From Verrucomicrobiota bacterium (lineage in GTDB: Bacteria > Verrucomicrobiota > Verrucomicrobiia > Opitutales > Opitutaceae): a stretch of 64,000 nt of DNA. Location of the stretch: NCBI GenBank assembly GCA_016871775.1, contig VHCI01000003.1:9458-73457 (forward strand), read 5' to 3'. The position numbers and the translations under genes are program-made. The notes beneath the pieces were generated by a model. That model was given only the letters and a program-made list of their open reading frames with translations. It did not search any database and had not been told where the DNA came from. This document shows, one piece after another, positions 3,085 through 57,128 of the stretch; the first letter of the stretch is position 1, and each line of letters opens with the position of its first letter.

Positions 3085-4587
3085 TCAGCGCGCGCGCCCC
3101 GGGATGCGGTTGAGCGTGTAGTAGGCGCGGGCGTGGCGGAGCGGCTGGCCTCCCGCGGAACGCAGGTCCCCGACCGCCAGCTCGTGCACGTGGCCCGGCC
3201 GCTGGCCGCCGCACCGCAGCGTCACGCTCCGCCGGTCCGACGCCACCGCGACCGCCTCGACCGTCACCGGCCGGGGGTCCGTCTCCGGGCTCCCGTAATT
3301 CTGGCGGTAAAGGTAGGTGTAGCTGCTCAAGGTGAACAACGCGGGCGTCACCACGGCCTCCCCGGCCAGCGGCTCCGTGAAGGTCAGGCGGAAGCCGTCC
3401 GGCGTCGCCTCCATCCGCTGGATCTCGAACGGCACCTTCCCCGTCCAGCGCAGCCGCTCGAGGCCGAAGGAGCGGGAACCGAGGGAATTCCAGCCGCGGT
3501 TGGATTCGCCCAAGATCATCGAGCCGTCGCCGAGGAACGCCATCTGGAGCACCGCCGACTGGAGTTGTTCCTGGAACGGGAAACACGCGCCCTGGTACTC
3601 GCCGTCGACCTGCTCGAGGAACACGCGGTTGACCTGCGCGAGGGTGAAGTCGCCCACGAACAGCTGCCCCGCGAAGGGGCCGAAGGCGCCGCCGGTCCGG
3701 TCGCAGACGATGCCCGTCGTGCTCTGCCCCATCTTCGCGTACGGGAACCACACCGCGGGCAGGGCGAAGCCCGGGATGCGCGCCGCCGCCTCCACCATGG
3801 TCAGGCCGGCCGGCAGCGGCCCCGGATCCCGGACCAGCGACTCGGGCCGCCGGGTCTCAGGGATCGAGTCCGCGTGGCCGTAGAACTTGCCCGGCCGCAC
3901 GTGGATCAGCGGGCAAGTGCCCCACCAGTTTCCCTGTTGGTCCGTGGCGAACACGTCCCCCGCGAGGTTGACCCCGAGGCCGAACGGCGACCGGAACCCG
4001 GCCGCCACCGGGAGCAACTCGCCGCCGGGCGCCTGCCGCATCGCCCAGCCCCGCCACAGGGGCCCCGCGGGCCGGTGGCCGTCGATCTTCGCCGGCGCGC
4101 CGATCGTCACGTTCAGCGTCACCCACAGGTTACCCTCGTGATCGAACACCGGGCCATAGGCGTACTCGTGGTAGTTGCCGGAGAGGCCCCAGCCCTTGGC
4201 CGCCGTCTCGTAGAGGTCCGCGACGCCGTCCCCGTCGCGGTCGGCGATGCGGGTGACCTCGCTGCGCTGCGCGGTGTAGAGGGCCCCGTCCCGCCACGTC
4301 AGGCCCAGCGGCTCGTGCAGGCCGGTCGCGAAACGACTGAAGCGGGCGCGCGCCGGATCCTCGAGCGGGTTCTCGAGGATCCAGATCTCACCCTTGCGCA
4401 GGGTGAGCGCGGCCCGCCCGTCCGGCAGGAGCGCGATGCCGCTCACCTCGAACTTGCTCTCGGTCGGGAGGGCGTAGGGGGTCAGCTCGTACGCGGGCGC
4501 GGCCGGCTCGGCGCCCCGGGCGAGGGCCGCGCCGAACGCGAGGAGCAGCGCGGCCCGCGACCCGCGGGCAAGACGTGCGGCGCTCAC
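3085..4587 (-). CDS. Exported beta-propeller protein, PVC-type glucose/sorbosone dehydrogenase-like
   Basis: Propeller-type motifs LHEPLGL, HEYAYGP, GFRSPFG, DQQGNW, GPFAGQLFVGD; signal peptide. GTG start (4587) overlaps the upstream stop (GTGA). Confidence 0.8.
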   Translation of the reverse strand: MSAARLARGSRAALLLAFGAALARGAEPAAPAYELTPYALPTESKFEVSGIALLPDGRAALTLRKGEIWILENPLEDPARARFSRFATGLHEPLGLTWRDGALYTAQRSEVTRIADRDGDGVADLYETAAKGWGLSGNYHEYAYGPVFDHEGNLWVTLNVTIGAPAKIDGHRPAGPLWRGWAMRQAPGGELLPVAAGFRSPFGLGVNLAGDVFATDQQGNWWGTCPLIHVRPGKFYGHADSIPETRRPESLVRDPGPLPAGLTMVEAAARIPGFALPAVWFPYAKMGQSTTGIVCDRTGGAFGPFAGQLFVGDFTLAQVNRVFLEQVDGEYQGACFPFQEQLQSAVLQMAFLGDGSMILGESNRGWNSLGSRSFGLERLRWTGKVPFEIQRMEATPDGFRLTFTEPLAGEAVVTPALFTLSSYTYLYRQNYGSPETDPRPVTVEAVAVASDRRSVTLRCGGQRPGHVHELAVGDLRSAGGQPLRHARAYYTLNRIPGRAR

Positions 4588-6788
4588 GGCAGCACCTCCT
4601 CGAGGAGGGCCTCGCCGGCGGGATCGAACGCGATCGGCCGCGGCGTCGCGCCGGGCGCCGCGCCCCGGAAGATCCAGCCCGGGCCGCCACCGCGCACCCG
4701 CAGCACCCGCAGGTAACCCCCGCCCGCCGGGTCGGGCCGCAAGGTGTCCTCGACCTGCAGCGGGCCGGCCTCGTACCGGAAGGTCGGCGTCCCGTCCGCG
4801 GCCGTGACGTGCCCGCGGAACCGGTGGGGCACCTCGGCCGCGCCGGCCTCCGCCCGCGCGAACGGCGTCCAGCCCGGCAGCGGCGTCACCGCGTCCCCCA
4901 GCGGCCGGGCGGGCGTCATCGCGCGCTCCTCCCAGGTGGTCAACGCGTCCAGGAAACGTCCCCGCCAGGTGAGGGCCCAGCGGACCTCGCGTCCGTCGAA
5001 CGCCGCGTGGCGCCCCGCGGGGGTGCCGACGGCGACCGCGTCGAGCCCGGCGCCCTGGAGGAAGGTGCGGAACACGAGCGTGCGCCCCGCCTGCTCCGGC
5101 CGCAGCTCGTACTCGCCGCCGCGCAGCAGGCCCTCGGGGAGCAGCTGCTGGTCGGCCTCCTTGAGGTAGGTCCAGAGCTGCTCGATCTCCTGGTTCGCCT
5201 TCGGGCGGCCCTGGAACATCGGCGGCATCCGCGTGCCGGGCTGCACGGACTGCGGGTTGAGGAGCAACTCCTTGAAATACTCCGGGAGCAGCCGCCGCGC
5301 GGCCGCGTCCAGCGGGATCGCCGACATCCCGACGGCGGGCCGTTCGCGCAACCCGTGGCAGGTGATGCAGCCCAGCCCGCCATCCTGCGTGCCCAGCAGC
5401 AGGCGGCCGTGGCCGGCGCGCTGGTGCAGCTGGCGGCCGCTCACGTCGATCGCGACCGGGGGCTCCCGCCGGTCCGCCTCCTCCCAGCGCGCCAGCACCG
5501 GCTCGGACACCGCGCGGCCGAAGGCCGGCATCCGCGCGACCTGGTAGGGCCGCACCTCGCCGCCGCCCTCCCAGAGCAACTTCGCCCACCACTCGCGGGT
5601 GAGCTTGCGCCCGACGTGGTCCAGGACCGGCGGCAGGTTGCCCATCTCGCCCAGGGCCTCGGCGGTGGCATCAGACACGGTGAAGAAGCGCTGCAGGGCG
5701 GGCTCGACCCCGCCGCGGCCGCCGCGGGTGTGGCACGCGTGGCAGTTCATCCGCGTCAGGAAACGCCCGACGTCGCCGGCCGCCCCGGGCCGCAGGAAGG
5801 AGTCGTCGCCCGCCAGCCGGCGCAGGGCGGCGCGCACCGCGTCCCGCTGTGCGGCATCAAGGCCGAAGTCGGGCGCACGCGGCGGGGGCGTCTCGGCGAG
5901 GCAACCCCGCGCCAGCGCCGCGTCGTCCGCCCGGAGCGCGGGCGCCGCCGGCGGGGCCGCCGCCGCGGGACCGGGCGAGGGATCCCCGTGGCACGCCGCG
6001 CAACCGCGCGTGGTGAAAAGCCGGCGGCCCTCCGTCACCAGCGCGGTCGGCACCGCCGCCGCCGCGGAAGTGGACGCGGGCGCGCCGCGCGCACGTTGCA
6101 GGTACGCCGCGACGTCCGCCGCCTCGGCGGGGGTCAGGTGGCTGTCCGGCATCCGCCCGGCGGGCCGCGCCGCGAGCGGATCGATCAGGAAGCGGACGAG
6201 GGCGGCGCGGTCGTAGCGCGCCCCGAGGGCCAGCGGCACCACCCCCAAGGGCTCCGGCGGCCGCGCCTCCCCGGCGGCGACGGGCAGGGCGAGGGACGGG
6301 TCCGCCGCGTGGCAGGCGACGCAGCCGACGGCGTGGTACAGGCGGCGACCGGCCTCGACCGAGCCCGCGGGCAATTCGGGTTCAGGGCGCGGCCGCCCGA
6401 GGGTGCCGAGGTAGGCGGCGAGCGCGGAGACCTCGGCGGCGGCTAGGGTGGTCCGCGGCATCAGCGTGCCGGGCTTGAATTCCGCGGGGTGCGCCAGGAA
6501 CGCGGCCAGCGCCGCGGGGTCAAGGCGCGCGCCGACATCCCCGAGGAGCGGGGCCGGGCGCGGCGGCAAACCCTCCGCGCCGGGCAGCCGGTGGCAGGCG
6601 ACGCAGTTGAGCTCCCCGAGCAGGAGCAACCCGCCCTCGGGCGCCGCGGCCGGCGCGGCGCGGTGGAAGCGCTCGAAGCCGGCGACGACGGGGGAGCCGG
6701 CGGCCGGCACGGCGGCAAGGCCGCACCCGAAGGTGGCCAGCAGGGCCCGGACCACCCGGACGGGAACCACGGGGCGCCGGGGGATCAC
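4584..6788 (-). CDS. Exported multiheme c-type cytochrome (5 CxxCH)
   Basis: CVACH, CVACH, CAACH, CHACH and CITCH, several followed by GxxMP axial-Met motifs (GTLMP, GRMP, GTRMP). GTG start overlaps the upstream stop. Confidence 0.88.
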   Translation of the reverse strand: MIPRRPVVPVRVVRALLATFGCGLAAVPAAGSPVVAGFERFHRAAPAAAPEGGLLLLGELNCVACHRLPGAEGLPPRPAPLLGDVGARLDPAALAAFLAHPAEFKPGTLMPRTTLAAAEVSALAAYLGTLGRPRPEPELPAGSVEAGRRLYHAVGCVACHAADPSLALPVAAGEARPPEPLGVVPLALGARYDRAALVRFLIDPLAARPAGRMPDSHLTPAEAADVAAYLQRARGAPASTSAAAAVPTALVTEGRRLFTTRGCAACHGDPSPGPAAAAPPAAPALRADDAALARGCLAETPPPRAPDFGLDAAQRDAVRAALRRLAGDDSFLRPGAAGDVGRFLTRMNCHACHTRGGRGGVEPALQRFFTVSDATAEALGEMGNLPPVLDHVGRKLTREWWAKLLWEGGGEVRPYQVARMPAFGRAVSEPVLARWEEADRREPPVAIDVSGRQLHQRAGHGRLLLGTQDGGLGCITCHGLRERPAVGMSAIPLDAAARRLLPEYFKELLLNPQSVQPGTRMPPMFQGRPKANQEIEQLWTYLKEADQQLLPEGLLRGGEYELRPEQAGRTLVFRTFLQGAGLDAVAVGTPAGRHAAFDGREVRWALTWRGRFLDALTTWEERAMTPARPLGDAVTPLPGWTPFARAEAGAAEVPHRFRGHVTAADGTPTFRYEAGPLQVEDTLRPDPAGGGYLRVLRVRGGGPGWIFRGAAPGATPRPIAFDPAGEALLEEVLP

Positions 6789-7729
6789 CGCGCGAACCCC
6801 CGCAGGATCGACTCCAGGTGGGCGCGCGAGCGGTTGATCTCGGCGGTGACGAGCGGGGCCGTCTCGAGGATCGGCCGGCCGCGCGGCGTGGGGTGCATAA
6901 AGATCTCGGTCCAGCCCGCGAAGCGGATGTCCTGCAGCGCGCGCAGCGGCGGCGCCCAATCGAGGGAGCCACGGCCGGGCAGCTGCATCAGTTCCTCGTC
7001 GAGGGGCATCGGCTTCATGCAGCCGCGCCCGTATTCCCAAGCGTAGAAGAGCAGCAGGCGGTCCCCGAGGTCGCGGATCAGGCCGGCGATCAGCGCGGGA
7101 TCCTGCGGCAGGTGGTAGGGCGCGAGGGCGATCCCGATCGGCAAACCCCGCCCGAAATCCCGCAGCCAGCGGATGGAGTCGGGCGTGTTGATCAACATAC
7201 TGCCGTGGTTCTCGACCGCGATATCGACGCCGGCGGCACGCGCCCGCTCGAGCGTGGGCCGCATCGCCTCCACAAACCGCCGCACCCCTTCCTTCAGCGC
7301 CTCGCCCGTCAGGCCGGCCTGCCCCTTCGCGCCCGTGACGATGAGGCGGCCGCTGTGGGACGCGACGAACGCGATCTCCTCGTCGAGCCCGTAGGGTCCG
7401 ATGTCGAAGCGGGTGGTGAGGGCAAGGGAGACCCCGTGGCGGCGCAGGGTGGCGGTCAGGCGCTCGCGGCCCCAGGCGTCAGCCTCCTCCCGCTGCGTCC
7501 CGTGGCGGCGCGGCCACAGGTCGATGGCGGTGGAACCCTGCCGCGGCACCTCCGGCAGGATCTGGTCGAGCGACAGCCCGCCGTACAGGCTCGAGGCGAC
7601 GGCGTAGCGGAGGGAGAAGCCGGCCGGGGCGGCGGCGCGGCCGGCGGCCGCCGCGACGGCGGCCAGCCCGGCGTGCTGAAGGAAGGTGCGGCGCGTCACC
7701 GCGGGCGTCAGGCGCTGGAGGAGGGGCAT
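6785..7729 (-). CDS. Tat-exported sugar phosphate isomerase/epimerase (xylose-isomerase-like TIM barrel)
   Basis: TRRTFL twin-arginine signal; AVENH and EIFMH metal-binding motifs. Confidence 0.85.
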   Translation of the reverse strand: MPLLQRLTPAVTRRTFLQHAGLAAVAAAAGRAAAPAGFSLRYAVASSLYGGLSLDQILPEVPRQGSTAIDLWPRRHGTQREEADAWGRERLTATLRRHGVSLALTTRFDIGPYGLDEEIAFVASHSGRLIVTGAKGQAGLTGEALKEGVRRFVEAMRPTLERARAAGVDIAVENHGSMLINTPDSIRWLRDFGRGLPIGIALAPYHLPQDPALIAGLIRDLGDRLLLFYAWEYGRGCMKPMPLDEELMQLPGRGSLDWAPPLRALQDIRFAGWTEIFMHPTPRGRPILETAPLVTAEINRSRAHLESILRGFAR

Positions 7730-7824
7730 GGCGGACGGGGGTAAGAGGGCCGATGAACCGCGGGCGGCCGGGCGCGCGGCGCCAAGAACCCCGGGCGGTC
7801 GCAGAGATTTTCGCTTGAATGTCA

Positions 7825-7836
7825 TTTGTCAACAAT
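7825..7836. promoter_or_regulatory. Candidate GntR operator 1 (TTTGTCAACAAT)
   Basis: Near-palindrome in the divergent gntR/isomerase intergenic region, identical to 9781-9792. Contains TTGACA on the minus strand. Confidence 0.7.
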
Positions 7837-7895
7837 CAATACCCACACGGGCGTTGCGTTCCGCGCGGGTGCGGATTCCGCTGCCCCGCTCCCTG

Positions 7896-8495
7896 ATGAA
7901 ACTCGCCTCCAACCTGCAGGAACAGGTCGCGTCGCACCTCCGCCGCCGAATCCTCTCCGGGCAACTGCTGCCGGACACCCCGCTGCGTGAGCAGACGCTC
8001 GCGGAGGAGTTCGGGATCAGCCGGGGGCCGATCCGGGACGCGCTGCTGCACCTGACCAAGGAGGGGCTGCTGGTGGCGAAGCCGAACGTCGGGGTGAAGG
8101 TCGCGGCCGAGCCGTCGGGCCTCAAGCGGAACGTCATCGTGCACCTGCGCCGGGAGATCGAGGCCTCCGCGGTGACGGCGTGGTTCGGCGCGCGCGACGC
8201 GGGCCTGCTGGGGCGGCTCGACGACAACCTCGCGCTTTACCGCGAGGCTTGCGGGGGCAGCGACCTGGGGCAGGTGGTGGAGCTGGATATGGCGTTCCAC
8301 CGGCTGATCGTGGAGGCGGCGGACCAGGGGAGCCTGGTGGACCTCTGGCTGCCGATAATGCTGCGGATGTTCCTGCGCTACTCGCGCCACCGGGACCTGA
8401 TGGAGAGTTACCGCGAGCACGCCGCCATCGTGCGGGCGATGCACGCCGGCCGCGAGTGGGAGGCGCTCGAGGCGCTGAAGAGCCACATCGTCTGA
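7896..8495 (+). CDS. GntR family transcriptional regulator with FCD domain
   Basis: wHTH LREQTLAEEFGISRGPIRDAL; FCD motifs DMAFHRLI and EHAAIVRA. Confidence 0.92.
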   Translation: MKLASNLQEQVASHLRRRILSGQLLPDTPLREQTLAEEFGISRGPIRDALLHLTKEGLLVAKPNVGVKVAAEPSGLKRNVIVHLRREIEASAVTAWFGARDAGLLGRLDDNLALYREACGGSDLGQVVELDMAFHRLIVEAADQGSLVDLWLPIMLRMFLRYSRHRDLMESYREHAAIVRAMHAGREWEALEALKSHIV

Positions 8496-8535
8496 CGCGG
8501 CCGCGCGGGCGCGGGGCGGTCTCCGCCGGTCCGGC

Positions 8536-9750
8536 TCAGGCGCGGGGGGCGGTGCGCACGATGCCGCGGGCCTCGAGGTCATCCACCTTCGCCGCGGCAT
8601 AGCCGGACTCGAGCAGCACCTCGCGCGTATGGGCGCCGAGTTCCGGGGCGAAGACGCGTTCCCGCGGCGGGGTGCCGTGGAGGCGCACCGGGGTGCCGAG
8701 CAGGCGGAACGCGCCCGCGGCGGGATGCGCCATCTCGACCACCATCCCGTTGGCCCGGACCTGGGGATCGTCGGCGGCCTCGGCGAGCGTGTTGATGCGG
8801 GCACAGAGGACGCCCTTGGCCTCGAGCTCGGCGAGCCACTCCGCGGTCGGGCGGGTGCGCAGGCGCGCCGCGAGCAGGCCGTTGAGCTCGGCGCGGTGGC
8901 GCGCCTGCAACTCGTGGGTGCGGAAACGCTCGTCCAACGAGAGGTCGCCGAGCCCGAGGGCGACCGAGATGTCGCGCAGCGCGTTCTCGCTGAACACGGG
9001 CGAGATCTCGAGGTAGCCGTCCCGCGTGGCGAAGGACTTGTCGATCGTGCTCTCGTTGGCGATCACGCCGGAGACCTCGGTGACGCGCCCCGCGTTCATC
9101 TCGGCGGGACCCTCCCAGCTGTGGGCGTGGAAGGCGACGCTGAGGAGGTCGGTCGTGACCTTCTGCCCCCGGCCTGTGCGCCCGCGGGCGAGCAACGCCA
9201 TCAAAATGCCCTGCATCAGCATCAGGCCCGCGGCGTAGTCGGCCGAGATGCCCGCCGGGATGGGCGGCTTCGCGGGGTCCGGCTGCACGAACCAGCCCGC
9301 CTCCGCGCGCGCCATCAGGTCGTGCCCGCCCCGCGCCCGGTCCGCCGACGGCCCGTGGTCGCCCCAGCCGCCGGACCACGCGTAGACCAGCCGCGGGTTG
9401 CGCCGCGCGAGTTCCTCGTAACCGAAACCCAGCTTCTCCATCACCCCCGCGCGGAAATTGTGCACCACCACGTCCGCCCGCGCCGCGAGGTCGTACACCG
9501 CCTGCTGCCCCGCCGGATCCTTCACGTCGATCGCCACGCTGCGCTTGTTCCGGTTCAGCCCGGCGAACGGCAGGCTCACCCCGTGGACAAACGGGCCCCA
9601 GCGACGGCTCCAGTCCCCCGCGCCCGGCCGCTCCACCTTGATCACGTCGGCACCGTAGTCGGCCAGGATCTGCGTCCCGACCGGCCCCTGATAAACGTGG
9701 GTGAAATCGAGGACCCGGATCCCGCCCAGCGCCGACTCGGAAGCTCGCAT
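8536..9750 (-). CDS. CaiB/BaiF family III CoA-transferase
   Basis: GIRVLDFT..GP, LADYGADVIKVE, NRNKRS, HNFR and the catalytic Asp in ADYAAG. Confidence 0.93.
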   Translation of the reverse strand: MRASESALGGIRVLDFTHVYQGPVGTQILADYGADVIKVERPGAGDWSRRWGPFVHGVSLPFAGLNRNKRSVAIDVKDPAGQQAVYDLAARADVVVHNFRAGVMEKLGFGYEELARRNPRLVYAWSGGWGDHGPSADRARGGHDLMARAEAGWFVQPDPAKPPIPAGISADYAAGLMLMQGILMALLARGRTGRGQKVTTDLLSVAFHAHSWEGPAEMNAGRVTEVSGVIANESTIDKSFATRDGYLEISPVFSENALRDISVALGLGDLSLDERFRTHELQARHRAELNGLLAARLRTRPTAEWLAELEAKGVLCARINTLAEAADDPQVRANGMVVEMAHPAAGAFRLLGTPVRLHGTPPRERVFAPELGAHTREVLLESGYAAAKVDDLEARGIVRTAPRA

Positions 9751-9780
9751 CCCCGAGGGACTAGCACGGCCTGATTGTAG

Positions 9781-9804
9781 TTTGTCAACAATACGTTTGA
9801 CAAC
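9781..9804. promoter_or_regulatory. Candidate GntR operator 2 (TTTGTCAACAAT plus adjacent GTTTGACAAC)
   Basis: Exact 12-mer repeat of operator 1, in the divergent CoA-transferase/hydratase intergenic region. Confidence 0.7.
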
Positions 9805-9845
9805 CCGTTATCTCAAGCGCGGCCTCCACGGGATCGAACTGACCT

Positions 9846-10634
9846 ATGCGCACCGAGGTTGAACTGGAATACCGCGACGGGATCGCGCACCTGACCCTGC
9901 GGCCGCCGGAGGGCAAGCCGCCGACGCTCGACCACGGGGTGATCGCGCGCCTCGACGCGCTCTGCGCCGAGGTGGAGACGCGGGCGGGGACCCTGGTGGC
10001 GGTGGTGGTGCGCAGCGCGTCGGCGCGGCACTTCTGCGCGGGGGCCAACCTCGAGGTGATGCGGACGATTACGGCGGCCAACGTGGCGGACTGGGTGCAC
10101 CAGGGCCACCGGCTGATGAACCGGCTGGAGGCCTTGCCGCTGCCGGTGGTGGCGGTCGTGGAGGGGTACGCGCTGGGCGGCGGCCTGGAACTGGCGATGG
10201 CGTGCGACCTGATTTTCGCGTCGGACACGGCCCGGCTCGGCCAGAGCGAGGTCAAGCTGGGGCTGGTGACCGGCTGGGGCGGCTGCCATCGCCTTGCGCG
10301 CCGGGTCGGGCTGGCGCGGGCGAAGGAGCTGGCCTTCAGCGCCCGCCTGGTGGAGGCCGGCGAGGCCGCGCGCATCGGCCTGGTCGACTGGGCGGGGCCC
10401 GCGGCGGAGCTGGAGGCGCGCGTGCGGGAATTCACGGTGGCGGTGGCCGCGAACAGCCGGGCCGCGGTGCGCGAGACGAAGGCCATCCTCGCCGCGTGCG
10501 CGGAGGGTACCGTGGCGGAAAGCGCGGACATCGAGGCGGCGGCCTCGGAACGCTGCCTCCGCGACGGCGACGCCCCCGCCCGCCTCGCCCAATTCTTCGC
10601 CGCGCGCCGCCCCTCGCCGCCCCCAGCCGGCTGA
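9846..10634 (+). CDS. Enoyl-CoA hydratase/isomerase (crotonase family)
   Basis: FCAGANL oxyanion motif; GGGLELAMACD and GQSEVKLG carry both catalytic Glu residues. Confidence 0.92.
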   Translation: MRTEVELEYRDGIAHLTLRPPEGKPPTLDHGVIARLDALCAEVETRAGTLVAVVVRSASARHFCAGANLEVMRTITAANVADWVHQGHRLMNRLEALPLPVVAVVEGYALGGGLELAMACDLIFASDTARLGQSEVKLGLVTGWGGCHRLARRVGLARAKELAFSARLVEAGEAARIGLVDWAGPAAELEARVREFTVAVAANSRAAVRETKAILAACAEGTVAESADIEAAASERCLRDGDAPARLAQFFAARRPSPPPAG

Positions 10635-10661
10635 GCCCGCCCCCGCCCGGGCGGCCCGCAA

Positions 10662-10758
10662 ATTGTCGACGATCAGTCACCGCCCTGCCCTACCCTCGAG
10701 GTAGGATTGGCGTTTGTTAACAAATTCCCTTGACCCGATTGTTGACGATTTTTAGCTC
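10662..10758 (+). promoter_or_regulatory. Promoter region of the TBDR with three candidate GntR operators
   Basis: ATTGTCGACGAT (10662-73), TTTGTTAACAAA (10713-24) and ATTGTTGACGAT (10738-49). The third lies in the 17-nt spacer of TTGACC(10730)-N17-TAGCTC(10753). Confidence 0.62.
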
Positions 10759-10852
10759 CCTTTCCGATCCCACCGACGCCGAAGCGCCCTGCGCCGCCCG
10801 GCGGCCTCCCTCACCCCCGACCCTGCCCCGGCCTTTTGTCTAACCCCCACCG

Positions 10853-13105
10853 ATGAGATCCCAACCCCTGCAGAGACTTCGCGGCCGCCTGTCCCCGCAC
10901 GCCGCCGCCCTTGCCCTCGCGCCCCTCGCGTTTGCCCAGCCGGCCCCGAATCCGGCCCGCGACGAGGCGGTTCGGCTCGACGTGTTCACGGTCCGGGAGA
11001 ATCCGGCCCGCGCCTACGGCTCGTCGAACCTCGCCTCCGCCACCCGCCTGAACACGCCCGCGGAGAACGTGCCGCAGACGATCAGCGTGCTGAACGAGGT
11101 GCTCCTGAAGGACATCTCAGCCTTCTCGTATGATCAGGCGGTGCGTTACACGCCGGGTGTCACCCAGCGGCAGAACGTGCGCGACGGGAGCGTCATCCGC
11201 GGGTTCATCGTCTCGAACCGGTACCGGAACGGCTTCCTCGTCCCGGGCTTCGAGACGGATATGATCAATGTGGACCGCATCGAGATCATCAAGGGTCCGT
11301 CCGCCTCGATCGCCGGCTCCTCCGAGTCAGGCGGCTACGTGAACATCATCACCAAGCGGCCGCAGGCGAAGGAGGCGGTCGTGGCGGCGGCGACCGTGGG
11401 GTCGCGGGGTTACCTGCGCGGCACGGTCGACGCGACCGGCCCGGTGGCCGGCACGGGCCTGTCCTACCGGCTGAACGCCGTGCACCTCACCGCGGACAGC
11501 TACCGCGACAATGAGAAGCTGCGGAAGACGGCCCTCTACCCTTCCTTCCTCTGGCGGATCTCGCGTGACACGCAGCTCTCGGTGGACCTCGAGTACTACG
11601 ACGGGCTGACGCCCGGCGGTTTCAGCACCCCTTACATCGCGCCGGTGAACACCGTGAGCCAGACCAGCGCGGTCAGCGTGCCCCAGGCGGTGGTGGTGCC
11701 CCCCGGGGTGACGCCGCGCTTCCGGCTGGGCCAGTGGGCGCCGATGTCCCTGAACACCAGCGGCGAGGCCGGGATGGGCTTCTACGCGGACCTCTACTCG
11801 ATCTTCACGACGCTCACGCACCAGTTCAACGAGGTGTTCACCGTGCGCCAGGCCGTCTCCTACTTTGACAGTTCCTCCAATCTCTACCGGTCCGTGGTGG
11901 CGAATTTCTTCACCTACAACGCCAACGGCGAGATCATCTACGAGCGCAACGCCACCCGGAACACCGCCTCGAGCCAGATCGTGCGGGCGCAGGGTGACCT
12001 CGTCGGCACGCGCAAGTGGCTCGGCGGCAAGCTCGGGACGACCGTGCTGCTCGGCTACGACCTCGGCCGCACCGACAGCGCCGGCACCACCACGACCGGA
12101 CAGATGGAGCCCATCAACATCAGCAGCCCGGTCTACGGGGTCCCGCTGCGCACCCCGATGCTCAAGACGGTCGACAACGTCTCCAAGGGCGGCAACTACG
12201 GCTACTTCGCCAACGCGCAGTTGACCGGCTTCAACGAGCGCGTGGTGGTCACCGGCGGCCTGCGGCGCGACCAGGGCAAGGCCTCCTGGACGCGCAACAA
12301 CTTCACCGGGGCCTACACCAACGTTCCGACCACGCCCACGGTCGAGAGCCCGATGTACGGGCTCACCGTCAAACCCCTGCCGTGGCTGTCCGCCTATGCG
12401 GTTTACAGCGAGGCGGGCGCGGCCAGCCGCCAGGTAGCGATCTTCCCGAACATCCCGCTGACGGATCCCCGGCAGATCCTGCGCACCGTGACCCCGCTCA
12501 CCACGAACGACGAGTTCGGCCTCAAGGCCAGCCTGCTCAACGGCGCCTTCGGCATCAACCTCGCCCACTACAAGATCGTGCAGGTCGACAACGTGCGGAA
12601 CAACACCAGCAACGACATCGTCAACGTGCCGGGCGGTTCCCAGAACATCATCGAGAGCGGCAATATGGCCAAGGGCTGGGAGCTCGAGTTCAGCGGCAGC
12701 CTGCGGCGCGACCTCGCGCTCGTCGGCGGGTACGCCTACACCGAGACGCAGGCCCCCGGTTTCCGCTCCGACGGCCGCTCCCCGCGCGAGATCCGCGGCA
12801 TCCCCCGGCACAAGCTGCAGGCTTTCGCCAAGTACGATTTCATTGGGGAACGCGCCAACGGATTCTCCATCCGCGCCGGGATGGTCTACCAGACCTCCGT
12901 CTGGGGCATCGCGGAGAACACCTACCGGATCGCCGGCGGCACCCGCTGGGACGCAGGCCTGAACTACCGCCGCAGGAACTGGGACTTCGCCCTCACGTGC
13001 GAGAACCTGACCAACATCGTCTTCGTCCAGGCCGCCATTGCCCCGGGCAGCAACACCGTCGACGCCCCGCGGACGGTCTACTTCAGCGCCACCGCGAAAT
13101 ACTAA
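10853..13105 (+). CDS. TonB-dependent receptor
   Basis: Signal peptide; plug motifs ASATRLNTP..NVPQTISV and DRIEIIKGPSA; C-terminal aromatic residue. Confidence 0.93.
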   Translation: MRSQPLQRLRGRLSPHAAALALAPLAFAQPAPNPARDEAVRLDVFTVRENPARAYGSSNLASATRLNTPAENVPQTISVLNEVLLKDISAFSYDQAVRYTPGVTQRQNVRDGSVIRGFIVSNRYRNGFLVPGFETDMINVDRIEIIKGPSASIAGSSESGGYVNIITKRPQAKEAVVAAATVGSRGYLRGTVDATGPVAGTGLSYRLNAVHLTADSYRDNEKLRKTALYPSFLWRISRDTQLSVDLEYYDGLTPGGFSTPYIAPVNTVSQTSAVSVPQAVVVPPGVTPRFRLGQWAPMSLNTSGEAGMGFYADLYSIFTTLTHQFNEVFTVRQAVSYFDSSSNLYRSVVANFFTYNANGEIIYERNATRNTASSQIVRAQGDLVGTRKWLGGKLGTTVLLGYDLGRTDSAGTTTTGQMEPINISSPVYGVPLRTPMLKTVDNVSKGGNYGYFANAQLTGFNERVVVTGGLRRDQGKASWTRNNFTGAYTNVPTTPTVESPMYGLTVKPLPWLSAYAVYSEAGAASRQVAIFPNIPLTDPRQILRTVTPLTTNDEFGLKASLLNGAFGINLAHYKIVQVDNVRNNTSNDIVNVPGGSQNIIESGNMAKGWELEFSGSLRRDLALVGGYAYTETQAPGFRSDGRSPREIRGIPRHKLQAFAKYDFIGERANGFSIRAGMVYQTSVWGIAENTYRIAGGTRWDAGLNYRRRNWDFALTCENLTNIVFVQAAIAPGSNTVDAPRTVYFSATAKY

Positions 13106-13283
13106 GGCGGCCGGACCCGCCCCGCGCGCCCCGGCCACCGGGGCGCGCCCGCCTCCCGGGGCCCGGGAATCCGGTTGCGCCGGGCCCCGCCGGGCCCAGC
13201 CTCCGCATGTCGGCGAAAATCCCCGCCGGCCCGGCCCCCTCCCGACTCCGCCCATGGCCACCGCTGAACGGCCGACCCGTGAT

Positions 13284-13590
13284 GTGCCCACCCAGCCGCG
13301 CCCGCTCCGCGCCGGCGGCCGGGGCTGGGGTGCCGCCCTCGCGCTGGCGCCCGCAATCCTCAGCGCGGCGTCCCCCTCTCGCGGGGCCGCACCGGAGCCG
13401 GTGGACTTCAACCGCGACGTCCGCCCCCTTGCTCTCGAACACCTGCCTCCGGTGCCACGGGCCGGACACGAAGGGCAATCCCTCGGGCCTGCGACTCGAC
13501 CGGCCGGAGTTCGCCCTCGCGCCTCACCAGGGCGAATCAGGCCGCCGGATCACCGCGTGGGTGCCCGGGAAACCCGCGGCGCCCGGCTAG
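13284..13590 (+). pseudogene. 5' remnant of a planctomycete-cytochrome-C (PSCyt1/DUF1549-type) gene
   Basis: Signal peptide plus VDFNRDVRPL in one frame continues as LSNTCLRCHGPD in another (frameshift ~13425-13432). Stops at 13590 with no DUF1549/1553 body. Confidence 0.7.
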
Positions 13591-13797
13591 GGCACGACCC
13601 CGCCCGCGCGGCCCGGCCCGCGCCGCCGCGCGACGCGCCACGCTTGTTTAGCTTTATTTGTGACTGAAACGCCGCCTTTGTTAACTATTAAGGACCGGAC
13701 CCCGCCTGAAGACCCAGCCACGCCGCCGCCGGTCGCCCCGCCCGATCGCCCTTGAGCGTGGGCAGCGCCCGTGTTCGCTCCCGCCCTCCCGCCCCTT

Positions 13798-14862
13798 ATG
13801 TCCCATCCGGCTCCCTTCCCCTTCCCCGCCAGCCCGCGGCCCGAACCCGGCACGGTGCGCTGGGGCATCCTCGGCTGCGGCGACGTCACCGAGGTCAAGA
13901 GCGGCCCGGGGTTCCGGCTCGCGGCCGGCTCCCGCCTCGTCGCGGTGATGCGCCGCAACGGCGCCCTCGCCGCCGACTACGCCCGGCGCCACGGCGTCCC
14001 CCGCTGGTACGACCAGGCCGAGGCCCTGATCGCCGACCCCGAGGTGGATGCGGTCTACATCGCCACGCCGCCCGACTCGCACGAGAGCTACGCCCGGCAG
14101 GTCGCGGCCGCCGGCAAGCCGGCCTACGTCGAGAAGCCGATGGCCCGCTCCGTCGCGGAATGCGACCGGATGATCGCCGCCTTCGCCGCGCGCGGCCTCC
14201 CGCTGTACGTGGCCTACTACCGCCGCGCCCTCCCCCGCTTCCGGCAAGTGAAACGCTGGCTCGACGAGGGCGCGATCGGGCGGATCACCGGCGTGGACTG
14301 CCATCTCGCCTCCCCCGCCCACCGTGCCGCGCCCGGCTGGCGCACGGACGTCCGCACCGCCGGCGCGGGGCTGTTCCTCGATCTCGGCTCCCACGCGCTC
14401 GACCTGCTGGACTTCCTGCTCGGGCCCCCCACCGACGTGTCCGGCCGGGCGCGCCACGCGGGCGGGCCACAGGAAGCGGAGGACTCGGTCGTGCTGCACT
14501 TCACCGCCGGCGGGGTGGATGGCGTGGCCTCGTGGAACTTCGCCACCGACGCCGCGCGCGACATCTGCCGGATCAGCGGCACCGAAGGGTGCGTGGAATA
14601 CTCGGTGTTCGACGCGGCGCCCGTGCGCCTGACGCGTGGCCGCGAGACGCAGGCGCTGGAGATCCCGCACCCGCCCCACGTGCAGCAGCCGCTGATCCAG
14701 ACCGTGGTGGACGAGTTGCTCGGCTGGGGCACCTGCCCGAGCACGGCCCAGTCCGCGCGGCGCACCTCCGCCGTGATGGACGCGGCGCTCACCTCCTTCT
14801 ACGGGGACCGGAGCGGCGACTTCTGGGCGCATCCCGGCGCCTGGCCCGGCCGGCGGCGCTGA
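13798..14862 (+). CDS. Gfo/Idh/MocA family oxidoreductase
   Basis: WGILGCG Rossmann motif, YIATPP, YVEKPMA, DLGSHALD. Confidence 0.92.
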   Translation: MSHPAPFPFPASPRPEPGTVRWGILGCGDVTEVKSGPGFRLAAGSRLVAVMRRNGALAADYARRHGVPRWYDQAEALIADPEVDAVYIATPPDSHESYARQVAAAGKPAYVEKPMARSVAECDRMIAAFAARGLPLYVAYYRRALPRFRQVKRWLDEGAIGRITGVDCHLASPAHRAAPGWRTDVRTAGAGLFLDLGSHALDLLDFLLGPPTDVSGRARHAGGPQEAEDSVVLHFTAGGVDGVASWNFATDAARDICRISGTEGCVEYSVFDAAPVRLTRGRETQALEIPHPPHVQQPLIQTVVDELLGWGTCPSTAQSARRTSAVMDAALTSFYGDRSGDFWAHPGAWPGRRR

Positions 14863-14869
14863 CCCGCCG

Positions 14870-15253
14870 TCAGGCGAACGGCCGCGCGCGCTGGCAGAGC
14901 TGGAGCGACACGCCCCAGGGGTCGCGCAGCATCACGAGGCAGGTGCCGTCGGGGAACGTGTCCTCCGACTGGAACGTGGCGCCGGCGGCCTCGAGGCGGC
15001 GGCGCTCGGCGCGGGCGTCGGGGGCGACCACGGCGACGTGGAAGCTGAGGGCGGGCAGGTCGGCTAGGGGCCAGCGGGGCACCGCCGGGTTCGAGTAGAG
15101 CTCGAGCACCACGCGGCCCGTGTCATCCCCGAGGAAGTGGGTAAACGGTGCCTCCTCCTTGCGCCACACGACGCGGAAACCGACGTGTTCCGTCCACCAG
15201 CGGGCGTGGGCTAGGACGTCGGGGACATTGAGGGCGAAGTGCTCGAACTTCAT
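14870..15253 (-). CDS. VOC/glyoxalase family protein
   Basis: FEHFALNV, LELY, FHVAV, DPWGVSLQL; 127 aa. Confidence 0.85.
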   Translation of the reverse strand: MKFEHFALNVPDVLAHARWWTEHVGFRVVWRKEEAPFTHFLGDDTGRVVLELYSNPAVPRWPLADLPALSFHVAVVAPDARAERRRLEAAGATFQSEDTFPDGTCLVMLRDPWGVSLQLCQRARPFA

Positions 15254-56195: not shown

Positions 56196-57128
56196 ATGCT
56201 GATCACGGAGATCCCGGCGAGAGCGCGGGTCTCGCCCGCGACGGTCTCGCGGGCGATCAACCGGCCGCAGATTTTCGCGGCGGACAGCTTGGCGCGGATC
56301 CGCTTGATGATGGGGGCGAACAGCCATGTGCCGTCCCCACTGAGCCGTCGGCGCGGGCCCGAGCCCCGGTCGGCGGAGTTGAGGCGGATTGGCGTCTGGT
56401 TTGTGGGCGCGCGCCCCCAACAACCTGAGCCTGAATTGGTTCCACGACCATTTACTGCACGCGCAGGCCAACGCCCCCCGCCAGCGCATCGACCTGCGGG
56501 TGTTTTGCTCGAATTCCCCAGAGGGGCTGCCGGCCGGGTGGAGCGGCGAGAAGCTGGAGGGTCTTATTTTGCAGGGGGTGGAGCCGGCGAACGAGGGGAA
56601 AGGCTGGCTGGCGGCAGACCATCTGGCAGAGCAGGGCCATCGGACGGTTGCGATGGTCAGCGCGGACCCGCAATTCAGCGCGGCGGCGCGGCGGGTGGTG
56701 GCCGTCCGGCAGCGGTCGCGGGAGCTGGGTCTGAAGGTGCATTCCATCCTGGGCCGGCCCAACCCTGCGGTGAGTTACCTAGAACTGATGCCCGCGCACG
56801 AGGAGAGCGAGACCCTGGTCGGCACCCTGCTGGCGGCGACCCCGCGGGACACCTGACTCTACCTGCCGGCGGATCATTTCTGCGGCGCCTTCTTCCGCGC
56901 TCTGCGGGCAGCAGGGCAGCGGCCAGGGGACAATTACAGGGCGATGATCGGGAACTACAACCTGGTCGTCTACCACAACCTCGACCATTCCCCGGCGGCA
57001 ATCGACATCAACCTTCCCACCCTTGTGAGAAAAGTTGTCGACCATCTGGTCTGGAAGATCGAGCATCCTCGGAGCTCGGCCGGATCGGCATCACTGTTAC
57101 CCCAACCCTCCGTCCCTCACCGCACTGA
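56196..57128 (+). pseudogene. LacI family regulator pseudogene
   Basis: HTH ITEIPARARVSPATVSRAIN; frameshift ~56415; in-frame TGA at ~56854; further shifts; ends with the LacI-like ITVTPTL. Confidence 0.75.

Follow-up and report, generated by a model that had tools for sequence, protein, structure and literature searches.

The gene block described here is probably the core of a regulon under an FCD-type GntR regulator, whose mechanism and physiology we infer. A conserved site occurs at gntR, at its neighbors, and at a distant importer/sulfatase locus, so the genes concerned very probably constitute one switchable unit of a kind already known, the GntR-repressed catabolic regulon. Conserved operators are predicted at gntR and the divergent TIM-barrel operon (one), at the divergent CoA-transferase and crotonase genes (one, common to both), before a TonB-dependent receptor (TBDR; two), before an oxidoreductase (one, with one mismatch), and at a second TBDR with sulfatases (two). 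The original prediction of one catabolic system is upheld by this motif evidence as regards co-regulation, but its limits were too narrow: the regulon is wider, taking in the second TBDR/two-sulfatase locus and probably a Gfo/Idh/MocA gene. The parts may form one pathway, for which a sulfated-glycan-derived acid is our favored substrate.

The predicted operator and its regulator

In the window (the whole 64-kb stretch of DNA analyzed), TTGTYRACRA occurs at 7826–7835, 9782–9791, 10663–10672, 10714–10723, and 10739–10748 and nowhere else, five copies, where shuffled sequence averaged 0.26 and never exceeded 2. All are intergenic (TIM/gntR, CoA-transferase/crotonase, and crotonase/TBDR), in agreement with the predicted five copies in exactly three promoter regions of the block; the sites are real, but the positions originally given are each one base early because they mark 12-mers, and the two identical 12-mers reported are indeed TTTGTCAACAAT, at 7825–7836 and 9781–9792. 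The host is an uncultured freshwater verrucomicrobium of the Opitutaceae. Across its genome (3.78 Mb, ~3,000 genes), the motif has 30 sites, 22 coding and 8 intergenic; seven of these eight fall in two loci, five in the block and two in the second TBDR/sulfatase locus, and the motif is thus not common in unrelated intergenic DNA.

The gntR gene (7896–8495, plus strand) encodes a 199-aa FadR-subfamily (FCD) regulator (PF00392, 66 bits; PF07729, 59.8 bits) in which D131, H135, H165, and H175 are invariant in eight orthologues. Only four FCD proteins are encoded in the genome, this one included, and the genome-wide scan placed no motif sites beside the other three. Of 79 GntR-homologue loci drawn from several phyla, 48 have a perfect TTGTNNACAA in the 300 nt upstream of the gene, against 2 of 79 for the reversed control pattern, and homologues of at least 85% identity have the perfect core upstream in 14 of 14 cases; the median distance from core to start codon is 56 nt. 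The core TTGT-YR-ACAA extends to ATTGTAnA-TTGTYRACAA-TnTACAAT, with an invariant T at +10, and the association spans Verrucomicrobiota, Planctomycetota, Chloroflexota, Deinococcota, and Gemmatimonadota. In 13 close-clade genomes, where the genes are syntenic, block conservation within the three intergenic regions is confined to the sites; these footprints persist over 8 to 13 genomes while the proteins fall to 57–85% identity. The counts and the conservation bear out the motif–GntR link claimed at the outset, and the motif behaves as a strong candidate operator of the local GntR, which we take to be an autoregulated repressor. Where identity to this GntR drops to 40–50%, homologues have different neighbors (a galactonate dehydratase, or PSCyt/DUF1501), which makes the operator a trait of the family and not a marker of a single pathway. 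In the cultured relative Horticoccus, a perfect site is found only at the CoA-transferase/crotonase–gntR promoter.

Four window sites (7826, 9782, 10714, and 10739) are conserved in relatives. O1 (TTGTCAACAA, 7826–7835) is separated from the gntR ATG by 60 nt and from the TIM start by 96 nt; it alone is conserved as a block across 12 of 13 aligned TIM–gntR intergenic regions (the L034 row is incomplete). Since gntR and the TIM operon have only this site between them, control of the operon is inseparable from autoregulation. O2 (9782–9791, again TTGTCAACAA) sits in a divergent control region (9774–9803). Here the CoA-transferase has a sigma-70-like promoter on the minus strand (−35 TTGTCA, 9803–9798; 18-nt spacer; −10 TACAAT, 9779–9774; 10 of 12 positions matched in the promoter scan), the spacer of which contains O2, and the surrounding block GATTGTnnTTTGTCAACAATacgTTTGACA is conserved in 13 genomes. 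The scan returned no other convincing −35/−10 pair, so repression of the remaining units is assumed, and the predicted overlap of the motif with −35 boxes or spacers is confirmed at this promoter only. O3 (10714–10723, TTGTTAACAA) and O4 (10739–10748, TTGTTGACGA) together span 10714–10748 before the TBDR and flank a conserved TTGACC (10730–10735); across eight genomes, conservation in the crotonase–TBDR spacer is limited to TTTGTTAACAA-n5-6-CTTGAC-n4-ATTGTTRACAAT. The fifth predicted site, the near-motif TTGTCGACGA (10663–10672), is conserved in none of seven relatives, is the commonest variant within coding DNA elsewhere in the genome, and is probably not functional. A sixth, O5 (TTGTTAACTA, 13678–13687, one mismatch), lies beyond the range first proposed, 84 nt before the oxidoreductase gene; it is orthologous to perfect sites of relatives, where TTGTTAACAA precedes that gene by 74 and 130 nt (L012/L023 and L025), and is probably an operator.

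At the second locus, on another contig, two motif sites separate a TBDR from two divergent sulfatases. The latter are formylglycine-type, carbohydrate-type enzymes (CAPAR and CSPTR motifs) whose nearest matches are S1_16/S1_19 carrageenan sulfatases and GalNAc-6-sulfatases. G035 and G078 retain both sites; G078 and G062 carry a GntR of 97–98% identity, and the G062 contig lacks the upstream region. The sites are absent at sulfatase orthologues of ≤73% identity (the 88%-identical G062 is not judgeable), and this GntR is missing from one of the two site-less genomes checked, G031, while the other, G079, has only a version of 72% identity. The genome holds ~115 sulfatases and ~31 TBDRs, so sulfatases at distant loci are weak evidence.

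Genes of the block

The predicted coupled isomerase–cytochrome–propeller operon is present on the minus strand. It begins with a Tat-exported xylose-isomerase-like TIM barrel (6785–7729; AP_endonuc_2) whose twin-arginine motif TRRTFL is invariant in orthologues and whose AF2 model (pLDDT 87.6) recovers ketose 3-epimerases, UlaE, IolI, and IolE in Foldseek. The 734-aa pentaheme c-type cytochrome (4584–6788; Cytochrom_C), with CxxCH motifs at residues 62, 156, 263, 349, and 474 and a nonheme C-terminal part, is translationally coupled on both sides through GTGA start/stop overlaps (6785–6788 and 4584–4587). Last comes an exported DUF7133 protein (3085–4587), modeled by AF2 as a six-bladed propeller with a C-terminal beta-sandwich (pLDDT 89.4); it scores 51.8 bits against TIGR02604, below the cut-off, has more than 5,400 homologues, and finds PQQ-type soluble sugar dehydrogenases (2ISM, 3A9G, 3DAS, and 2G8S) as its top Foldseek matches. 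A search for pqqC gave no match, and its control search was uninformative. The trio occurs phylum-wide, with LacI- or XylR-type regulators elsewhere, and is, as judged from the models, an uncharacterized module with a sugar-dehydrogenase-like fold.

The CoA-transferase and crotonase calls are confirmed by profile matches. The family III CoA-transferase (8536–9750, minus strand; 404 aa; PF02515, CoA_transf_3, 354 bits) has SUGCT (9BR7, 211 bits) and YfdE as nearest structures. Aligned with SUGCT, YfdE, and a formyl-CoA transferase, its D171 falls on their conserved Asp (x-D-x-x-x-G), which we take to be the catalytic residue of the family. No NCBIfam equivalog was matched (220 bits against a cut-off of 750). 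The crotonase-family enoyl-CoA hydratase (9846–10634, plus strand; 262 aa; ECH_1, 138.7 bits) keeps both catalytic Glu positions (E115 in GGGLE and E135 in GQSE), and its nearest structures are short-chain enoyl-CoA hydratases.

The original GntR and TBDR calls likewise stand (GntR plus FCD; Plug plus barrel). The TBDR (10853–13105, plus strand; 750 aa) belongs to an FhuA/siderophore-receptor-like branch (TIGR01783, 173 bits, below cut-off); it is present in L022, L026–L029, and L033–L035 and absent in L023 and L025, and in L026 a sulfatase follows it within the block. A frameshifted, truncated PSCyt1/PSCyt2/PSD1 remnant (13254–13590, plus strand), matched by tblastn to residues 41–80 and 79–124 of a 1,118-aa L027 protein in two different frames, is a pseudogene probably outside the working regulon. 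The cytoplasmic Gfo/Idh/MocA NAD(P) oxidoreductase (13771–14862, plus strand; the start may be ATG 13798) shows no signal peptide in its sequence, has best NCBIfam matches (IolG-like and levoglucosan dehydrogenase-like) far below their cut-offs, is syntenic in L023, L025, and L026, and is probably a regulon member.

Regulon model and alternatives

We propose that GntR dimers on the operators would block transcription and that a carboxylate effector, or its CoA ester, would bind in the metal-containing FCD pocket and release the DNA; effector binding releases DNA likewise in DgoR and FadR. Both TBDRs would import a sulfated sugar or oligosaccharide, sulfatases would remove sulfate in the periplasm, and the propeller, with its soluble-glucose-dehydrogenase fold, may oxidize the sugar and pass electrons to the pentaheme cytochrome, the epimerase-like TIM barrel handling the oxidized sugar. 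In the cytoplasm, the oxidoreductase, CoA-transferase, and hydratase would convert the resulting acid, for which CoA transfer could be the activating step and hydration or dehydration the next, as with CaiB/CaiD or AcuN/AcuK. We know of no CoA-dependent sugar-acid route, and no chemical step joins the desulfated or oxidized sugar to the CoA-transferase/crotonase pair. The TBDR, being siderophore-receptor-like and dispensable in near-identical relatives, speaks against a single pathway.

Beyond the close clade, only gntR, the CoA-transferase, and the crotonase stay linked, and an aldehyde dehydrogenase often accompanies them. Starting independently from the CoA-transferase, look-ups retrieve this gntR-ECH-CoAT-ALDH cassette with perfect sites in a Kiritimatiellae genome and a metagenome contig (one protein of which is also in Tara data). 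Family I and family III CoA-transferases interchange beside the same GntR and hydratase, and distant relatives have a FadX/YdiF-like short-chain acyl-CoA transferase as the partner, along with an aldehyde dehydrogenase. Judged by gene neighborhoods, the cassette is an ancient, widely conserved core, to which the TBDR, the sulfatases, and the Tat TIM-barrel/pentaheme/propeller operon are clade-specific additions; the effector is therefore most likely a substrate or product of the CoA-transferase/crotonase pair.

The same distribution suits a reading that we hold to be unlikely but worth weighing, namely that GntR and operator are real and the regulon is a patchwork, not one pathway. The ancient job of GntR would then be the short-chain acid CoA cassette; the trio would be co-located only through the shared divergent spacer, and the TBDR and sulfatase promoters would have gained sites recently, co-induction being useful without common intermediates. 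Consistent with this are the restricted linkage and transferase interchange just described, the phylum-wide trio with its other regulators, a TBDR that varies even among relatives with 97–98% GntR identity, and second-locus sites confined to the closest relatives. However, the trio, a TBDR, the CoA-transferase, the crotonase, and gntR remain within a few kilobases in rearranged distant genomes (L013/L037, L039, L016, and L020/L080), a proximity that exceeds what a shared spacer explains, and the conservation of seven operators at five promoters implies that co-regulation is selected for.

We consider it improbable that the CoA-transferase/crotonase pair is instead a shuttle that detoxifies or salvages a small 2-enoate or 3-hydroxy acid, as in acrylate conversion to 3-hydroxypropionate (AcuN/AcuK) or in a cycle of the carnitine type (CaiB/CaiD), with GntR sensing that acid and sugars and sulfatases irrelevant. 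Adjoining family III transferase and two-Glu hydratase genes fit such logic (PMC5651017), as does the FadX/YdiF-like partner with aldehyde dehydrogenase; on the other hand, the CaiB model scores only 105 bits against a cut-off of 413, the acryloyl-CoA hydratase AcuH (5XZD) matches less well than generic hydratases (102 and 133 bits), and the nearest transferases (SUGCT, YfdE, and succinate-glutarate) act on dicarboxylates. The neighborhoods are glycan and sugar-acid loci throughout (sulfatases, MFS_2 and sugar transporters, GH43/GH26, altronate-type dehydratase, and beta-helix proteins), and genes for DMSP, acrylate, or carnitine were not seen. That the motif is a promoter element, another regulator's site, or a chance pattern is very hard to credit: TTGTTGACAA does contain the −35 hexamer TTGACA in the orientation that predominates upstream of gntR in distant loci, and six of the eight listed intergenic sites contain TTGAC or TCGAC, but the two TTGTTAACAA sites do not, the fully palindromic TTGTTAACAA form, lacking TTGACA, is used at conserved positions, the outer TTGT/ACAA and flanking T are invariant although a −35 box needs neither, no Rfam family matches the region, and neither eight intergenic sites in the whole genome nor the GntR association across five phyla fits such an origin.

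Comparison with known systems

Among the closest known systems to the proposed GntR regulon is that of DgoR, the Escherichia coli D-galactonate repressor, which has the same GntR/FadR-subfamily FCD architecture. At its own promoter DgoR recognizes the half-site ATTGTA/TACAAT; it is released by D-galactonate and is autoregulated through operators that overlap that promoter (PMC11705089); its IR1, CTAAATTGTAGTACAACAATAT, has the half-site letters found here, and its two closely spaced inverted repeats recall the O3/O4 pair (PMC11705089). A carboxylate effector in a metal-containing pocket is described for it (PMC7674646). Some GntR homologues at 40–45% identity adjoin a galactonate dehydratase above the NCBIfam cut-off, a DgoR-like context. 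DgoR is nevertheless no orthologue: the NCBIfam and PDB matches of the local GntR include neither a DgoR model nor a DgoR structure, the half-sites are spaced as TTGT-N2-ACAA here and TTGTA-N1-TACAA there, and the genes controlled are not dgoKADT.

The whole set of parts is, as first stated, not recognized as a described pathway, but the pairing of an adjacent family III CoA-transferase and crotonase is, in CaiB/CaiD of E. coli carnitine metabolism and in the acrylate enzymes AcuN/AcuK of Halomonas. An AcuN/AcuK-type cycle is implied, in which an acid would gain CoA, the ester would be hydrated or dehydrated, and CoA would pass to the next substrate molecule (PMC5651017). The transferase here differs in its distance from CaiB and in having dicarboxylate-using enzymes as its nearest relatives, the hydratase in not having AcuH nearest, and the genomic context in pointing to sulfated-glycan use rather than to DMSP or carnitine.

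Substrate-specific TBDR and sulfatase loci of the PVC group, which resemble polysaccharide-utilization loci without SusD, are usually described as being under ECF sigma/anti-sigma, AraC, or hybrid two-component control. The second locus has their divergent TBDR/two-sulfatase layout; unlike them, it carries two predicted GntR operators in the divergent promoter, with no local GntR. The trio has PVC-type "membrane-bound dehydrogenase" relatives, its propeller resembles PQQ-type soluble sugar dehydrogenases by fold (2ISM, 3A9G, and 2G8S closest), and ketose 3-epimerases, IolI, and IolE are the closest folds to the TIM barrel. A Verrucomicrobium sp. trio (L127) has the same gene order and coupling, but its proteins are split (544 + 197 aa), whereas here the DUF6797-like part is fused into the 734-aa cytochrome; and while other trios have LacI- or XylR-like regulators, this one stands under a predicted GntR operator beside CoA enzymes.

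Motif sites in the block and the source genome

The block at 3085-13105 was mapped using a codon-usage caller trained on the genome, together with Pfam and NCBIfam. On the reverse strand, three genes joined by GTGA overlaps encode a DUF7133 propeller (3085-4587), a cytochrome c with five CxxCH motifs (4584-6788), and a xylose-isomerase-like TIM barrel with a Tat signal (6785-7729), here called the trio; beyond them lie genes for a GntR regulator with an FCD domain (7896-8495, forward), a predicted family III CoA-transferase (8536-9750, reverse), a crotonase (9846-10634, forward), and a predicted TonB-dependent receptor (TBDR; 10853-13105, forward). The source assembly (3.78 Mb, 274 contigs, 70% G+C, with the window on contig C3) contains ~115 sulfatase and ~31 TBDR paralogues, or roughly one sulfatase per 33 kb, which identifies the source organism as a sulfated-glycan specialist.

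The 64-kb window has five copies of the motif TTGTYRACRA, at 7826, 9782, 10663, 10714, and 10739; dinucleotide shuffles of the window gave a mean of 0.26 sites and a maximum of 2. The window scan and gene map agree with the original prediction that all five copies are confined to the three intergenic regions of the block and that two are identical 12-mers (TTTGTCAACAAT, at 7825-7836 and 9781-9792); its coordinates were one base lower because 12-mers, not 10-mers, had been marked. Genome-wide, we found 30 distinct sites, of which 22 lie within genes, mostly as the GC-centered variants TTGTCGACGA and TCGTCGACAA read as Val-Asp codons. The eight intergenic sites comprise the five in the block, two on contig C99 between the divergently oriented gene for a 967-aa TBDR and two sulfatase genes, and one isolated on contig C74. 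With seven of eight intergenic sites in two loci, the genome-wide scan and the shuffle statistics reject a chance or common pattern. The lone perfect TTGTCGACAA at C74:14736-14745 lies in an unusually long stretch (~1 kb) where no gene was called, flanked by a 415-aa gene and a 71-aa ORF; no regulon-related gene was found around it, and we leave it as unexplained or due to chance.

Allowing one mismatch gave 35 intergenic sites in the source genome, mostly uninformative. This search added TTGTTAACTA at 13678, 84 nt 5' of a Gfo/Idh/MocA oxidoreductase gene, and TTGTCGACCA at 57035-57044, 142 nt 5' of another TBDR gene in the window (57186-60245, forward; 1019 aa); this latter site could be due to chance or mark a weakly controlled regulon member. 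A short LacI-like fragment (56401-56856) lies near the latter site. When further regulon members were sought in eight relatives, the extra perfect sites were nearly all in coding DNA. Perfect TTGTCAACAA recurs in four loci (L103, L106, L108, and L109, from genomes G007, G020, G004, and G013), at the same offset in a ~625-aa gene in three genomes and with no gene called at its position in L109; three of these loci have a second site, TTGTGAACAA/TTGTTCACAA, at a distance of 226 bp. The presence of TTGTCAACAA inside the ~625-aa gene is probably due to codon conservation and not to operator function.

The regulator and its predicted operator

The block regulator carries a GntR winged helix-turn-helix (PF00392, 66 bits, residues 7-69) and a C-terminal all-helical FCD domain (PF07729, 59.8 bits, residues 81-198), both above cut-off, and its sequence assigns it to the FadR/FCD subfamily of the GntR family. 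Residues D131, H135, H165, and H175, a putative metal-ligand Asp/His set of the FCD pocket, are invariant in eight GntR orthologues. The source genome encodes four FCD regulators, and no motif site adjoins the other three. Of 60 other genomes sampled, 10 encode an orthologue (9 of the 36 within the genus, and two from further families of the order), and a perfect TTGTYRACAA lies just 5' of nine of the ten that were fetched; in the remaining locus, L018, the sole site is 3.5 kb off.

A wider GntR scan covered 80 loci, 79 of them with enough upstream DNA, spanning Verrucomicrobiota, Planctomycetota, Chloroflexota, Gemmatimonadota, Deinococcota, Latescibacterota, and some Gammaproteobacteria. A perfect TTGTNNACAA lies ≤300 nt from the GntR start codon in 48 of the 79 loci (median 56 nt), compared with 2 of 79 for a reversed control pattern, and all 14 loci with GntR identity ≥85% have the perfect upstream core. 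The extended operator reads ATTGTAnA-TTGTYRACAA-TnTACAAT, and all 40 unique sites have a T at +10. Searches anchored on CoA-transferase homologues instead of GntR recover a gntR-crotonase-CoA-transferase-aldehyde dehydrogenase cassette with perfect sites in a metagenome contig (one protein of which is also in Tara data) and in a Kiritimatiellae genome. The motif is thus well supported as the predicted operator of this GntR family.

In the close clade, 14 loci with 86-98% GntR identity share one order: propeller-cytochrome-TIM barrel, a site, gntR; CoA-transferase, a site, crotonase; and two sites, TBDR. Synteny and motif conservation hold across this clade with protein identities down to 53-57% for the propeller and cytochrome. 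When the three intergenic regions were aligned with MAFFT, the sole conserved blocks were ATTGTCATTTGTCAACAAT; GATTGTnnTTTGTCAACAATacgTTTGACA; and TTTGTTAACAA-n5-6-CTTGAC-n4-ATTGTTRACAAT, in which a search for known RNA elements returned no Rfam family at E ≤ 0.1. The 10663 site is not conserved in relatives and is probably chance. A promoter scan upstream of the CoA-transferase gene found a -35 element TTGTCA and a -10 element TACAAT, with the predicted operator inside the 18-nt spacer, a location that would suit a repressor; neither scan nor eye found convincing -35/-10 pairs for gntR, the TIM-barrel operon, the crotonase, or the TBDR.

The TBDR gene and its two operators are present or absent among genomes with 96-98% identical GntR, which suggests that the receptor cassette was recently inserted or deleted. 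Where it is absent (L023 and L025), the crotonase gene is followed by one perfect operator and then directly by the oxidoreductase gene; in the window, the one-mismatch copy at 13678 lies at a similar distance before that gene and is probably the same site. Between the TBDR and oxidoreductase genes of the block, 13254-13590 (forward) holds a frameshifted, truncated PSCyt1/PSCyt2/PSD1 remnant matching residues 41-124 of an intact 1118-aa gene found 3' of the TBDR in L027; in L026 a sulfatase gene takes that place, inside the block itself, and intact paralogues occur elsewhere in the source genome (e.g., contig C23, 62% identity). At 14870-15253 (reverse), a gene for a 127-aa protein, glyoxalase/VOC-fold-like by eye and without an NCBIfam match, is a conserved neighbor of the oxidoreductase gene in L023, L025, and L026.

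Genomes G035 and G078 (sulfatase identity 95% and 90%) retain the two C99 sites of the second locus in unchanged relative positions, and such sites are absent from sulfatase orthologues at ≤73% identity. G062 (88% sulfatase) was left out of this comparison, its contig starting inside the gene. G078 and G062 carry a 97-98% identical GntR; G031, with a 73% sulfatase, has neither the sites nor such a GntR. Sulfatase proximity in distant loci counts little because sulfatases are so numerous in the source genome, and the evidence for the second locus is the conserved operators, not that proximity. The two C99 proteins have C-x-P-x-R motifs (CAPAR and CSPTR), hydrophobic N-terminal leaders in their translations, and best PDB matches to S1_16 and S1_19 carrageenan sulfatases and GalNAc-6-sulfatase (200-210 bits), and are predicted S1 formylglycine sulfatases.

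Beyond the close clade, GntR stays beside a crotonase and a CoA-transferase that belongs to family III or is a fused, FadX/YdiF-like family I protein of 509 aa, often with an aldehyde dehydrogenase of ~490 aa. Surrounding genes encode sulfatases, beta-helix proteins, MFS_2 and sugar transporters, GH26/GH43, and altronate-type dehydratases. GntR homologues at 40-46% identity occur in other contexts, with galactonate dehydratase (353.8 bits vs. a cut-off of 311), SDR, Zn-ADH, and ABC genes or, in planctomycetes, beside PSCyt/PSD1 and DUF1501 pairs; the predicted operator therefore characterizes a GntR subfamily of the sugar-acid type, and the CoA cassette is the partner of the branch that includes the block's gntR. 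In planctomycetes and some verrucomicrobia, a GntR homologue with the same operator is followed directly by PSCyt1-PSCyt2-PSD1 and DUF1501 genes (L046, L059, L064, L066, L068, L075-L079, L081, L096, and L101), and this operator may offer a regulatory handle on a long-unexplained pair. In Horticoccus, a perfect site lies at the CoA-transferase/crotonase-gntR promoter only, and the CoA-transferase gene is followed by a TBDR gene on the same strand, with the trio next door.

Enzymes, receptor and periplasmic trio

The predicted family III (CaiB/BaiF/Frc) CoA-transferase covers 366 of 366 positions of PF02515 (354 bits). Its D171, which we take to be the catalytic Asp of the family, lines up with an Asp conserved in SUGCT, YfdE, and a formyl-CoA transferase. 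The nearest structures are those of the dicarboxylate-using SUGCT (9BR7, 211 bits) and then YfdE; no characterized specificity (CaiB, Frc, YfdE, SUGCT, Mct, or succinate-glutarate) was reached, with the best NCBIfam score 220 bits vs. a cut-off of 750 and the CaiB model 105 bits vs. 413. Homologues bear generic names only, and naming a substrate from them failed.

The crotonase matches ECH_1 (138.7 bits) and is predicted to keep the enoyl-CoA hydratase fold and both catalytic glutamates: E115 in GGGLE and E135 in GQSE correspond to the Glu144/Glu164 hydratase motif (PMC5651017). No hydratase equivalog was found in NCBIfam (159.7 bits vs. a cut-off of 394), and generic short-chain hydratases score higher (132.8 bits) than the AcuH structure 5XZD (101.9 bits). 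The aldehyde dehydrogenase, beta-helix protein, and oxidoreductase likewise have no NCBIfam equivalog match. Two Opitutales/Puniceicoccaceae loci carry a 221-aa gene with the cassette: in L072 (5221-5886) it belongs to PF01596, the caffeoyl-CoA O-methyltransferase family, and lies beside the aldehyde dehydrogenase gene, and in L073 (5612-6277) a gene of that size takes its place. The L072 gene prompted a hydroxycinnamate (Fcs/Ech/Vdh-like) reading, which we did not adopt, since the HCHL structures 2VSS and 2J5I are not among the hydratase's listed structural relatives.

The predicted TBDR has a PF07715 plug and PF00593 barrel above cut-offs, and the siderophore-receptor subfamily model falls below its own (173 vs. 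223.5). A siderophore or PQQ importer was dropped, the PqqU model scoring 33 bits.

No sequence-level PDB relatives were found for the propeller or the TIM barrel, so their folds were compared instead. The propeller model (AF2, pLDDT 89.4) has PQQ-type soluble sugar dehydrogenases as its top Foldseek matches, first 2ISM (E = 1.6e-11, target-normalized TM 0.74) and then 3A9G, 3DAS, 2G8S, and 1C9U; the modeled DUF7133 protein has the six-bladed propeller fold of these dehydrogenases (sGDH/Asd/YliI, AA12). A pqqC search of the source genome gave no match and likewise none in control genomes, so it is uninformative. The TIM-barrel model (AF2, pLDDT 88) matches ketose 3-epimerases, UlaE, IolI, and IolE. 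We rejected assignment of the propeller to the PVC-type heme-binding CxxCH proteins (TIGR02604 plus TIGR02603) on its TIGR02604 score (51.8 bits vs. a cut-off of 122.2): in those proteins a single chain joins the propeller to HEAT repeats and a C-terminal cytochrome c domain, whereas the trio consists of separate proteins, the propeller lacking CxxCH and the hemes residing on a translationally coupled partner. The trio occurs in the same order in Verrucomicrobium sp., where a Glyoxalase-family gene lies nearby (L127), and in another genome with LacI and BNR genes.

The proposed regulon and its candidate pathway

The block is syntenic, its catalytic residues are intact, its proteins have assigned fold classes, and the predicted operator is conserved at five promoter regions in two loci. 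The original claim of a GntR regulon is supported and widened. That claim also cast the regulon as one catabolic system for an acid or sugar-acid; the gene set and its synteny stand, and the genes may make up a single pathway. By analogy with DgoR and FadR, GntR repression would be relieved by a carboxylate or acyl-CoA effector, and the trio, which shares its single site with gntR, would also be under GntR control. A sulfated sugar would be taken up, desulfated and oxidized in the periplasm, and then passed through the cytoplasmic oxidoreductase, CoA transfer, and hydration. We know of no chemistry that joins an oxidized sugar to the CoA-transferase/crotonase pair, so we rate the likelihood of one pathway just somewhat above that of a patchwork regulon. 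It is conceivable, though we consider it doubtful, that the gntR-CoA-transferase-crotonase(-aldehyde dehydrogenase) cassette, widespread in sulfated-glycan-degrading Verrucomicrobiota, Kiritimatiellia, Planctomycetota, and Chloroflexota, forms a new CoA-dependent (desulfated-)sugar-acid branch, wired in the Opitutaceae clade via one repressor to the trio, itself an uncharacterized periplasmic module thought of here as oxidizing sugars and linked to a cytochrome; such a branch may be undescribed, and if it exists, the GntR effector would reveal the long-sought substrate class of the DUF7133/pentaheme/TIM-barrel operon.

The main value of the regulon is one small regulator as an experimental entry to several uncharacterized PVC protein families. 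The verrucomicrobial trio operon (thousands of homologues), the family III CoA-transferase plus hydratase orthogroup, and two of the ~115 sulfatases are each without a characterized member, and through the common operator the ligand of a single soluble protein would point to the substrate of all three sets. The operator ATTGT-YR-ACAAT could be used to predict GntR-subfamily regulons in uncultured PVC, Chloroflexota, and other genomes, and experiments are feasible in the cultured relative Horticoccus sp. 23ND18S-11, which has the core cassette and site.

A family III CoA-transferase paired with a crotonase is familiar from CaiB/CaiD. The block shares this pairing with that system and with AcuN/AcuK, whose acrylate route follows the same enzyme logic (PMC5651017); membership in either is not supported, and the block shows neither ddd nor acuI genes. 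As a regulatory principle, a GntR repressor that controls its own gene through a palindromic operator is ordinary. Operator IR1 of Escherichia coli DgoR, ATTGTA-G-TACAA, has the same half-site letters (PMC11705089), and these alone are alike: orthology with DgoR is ruled out by the lack of a DgoR entry among the regulator's 16 NCBIfam and 11 PDB matches and of dgo genes in the block. The kind of regulation is known, and the gene set that this GntR joins is uncharacterized.
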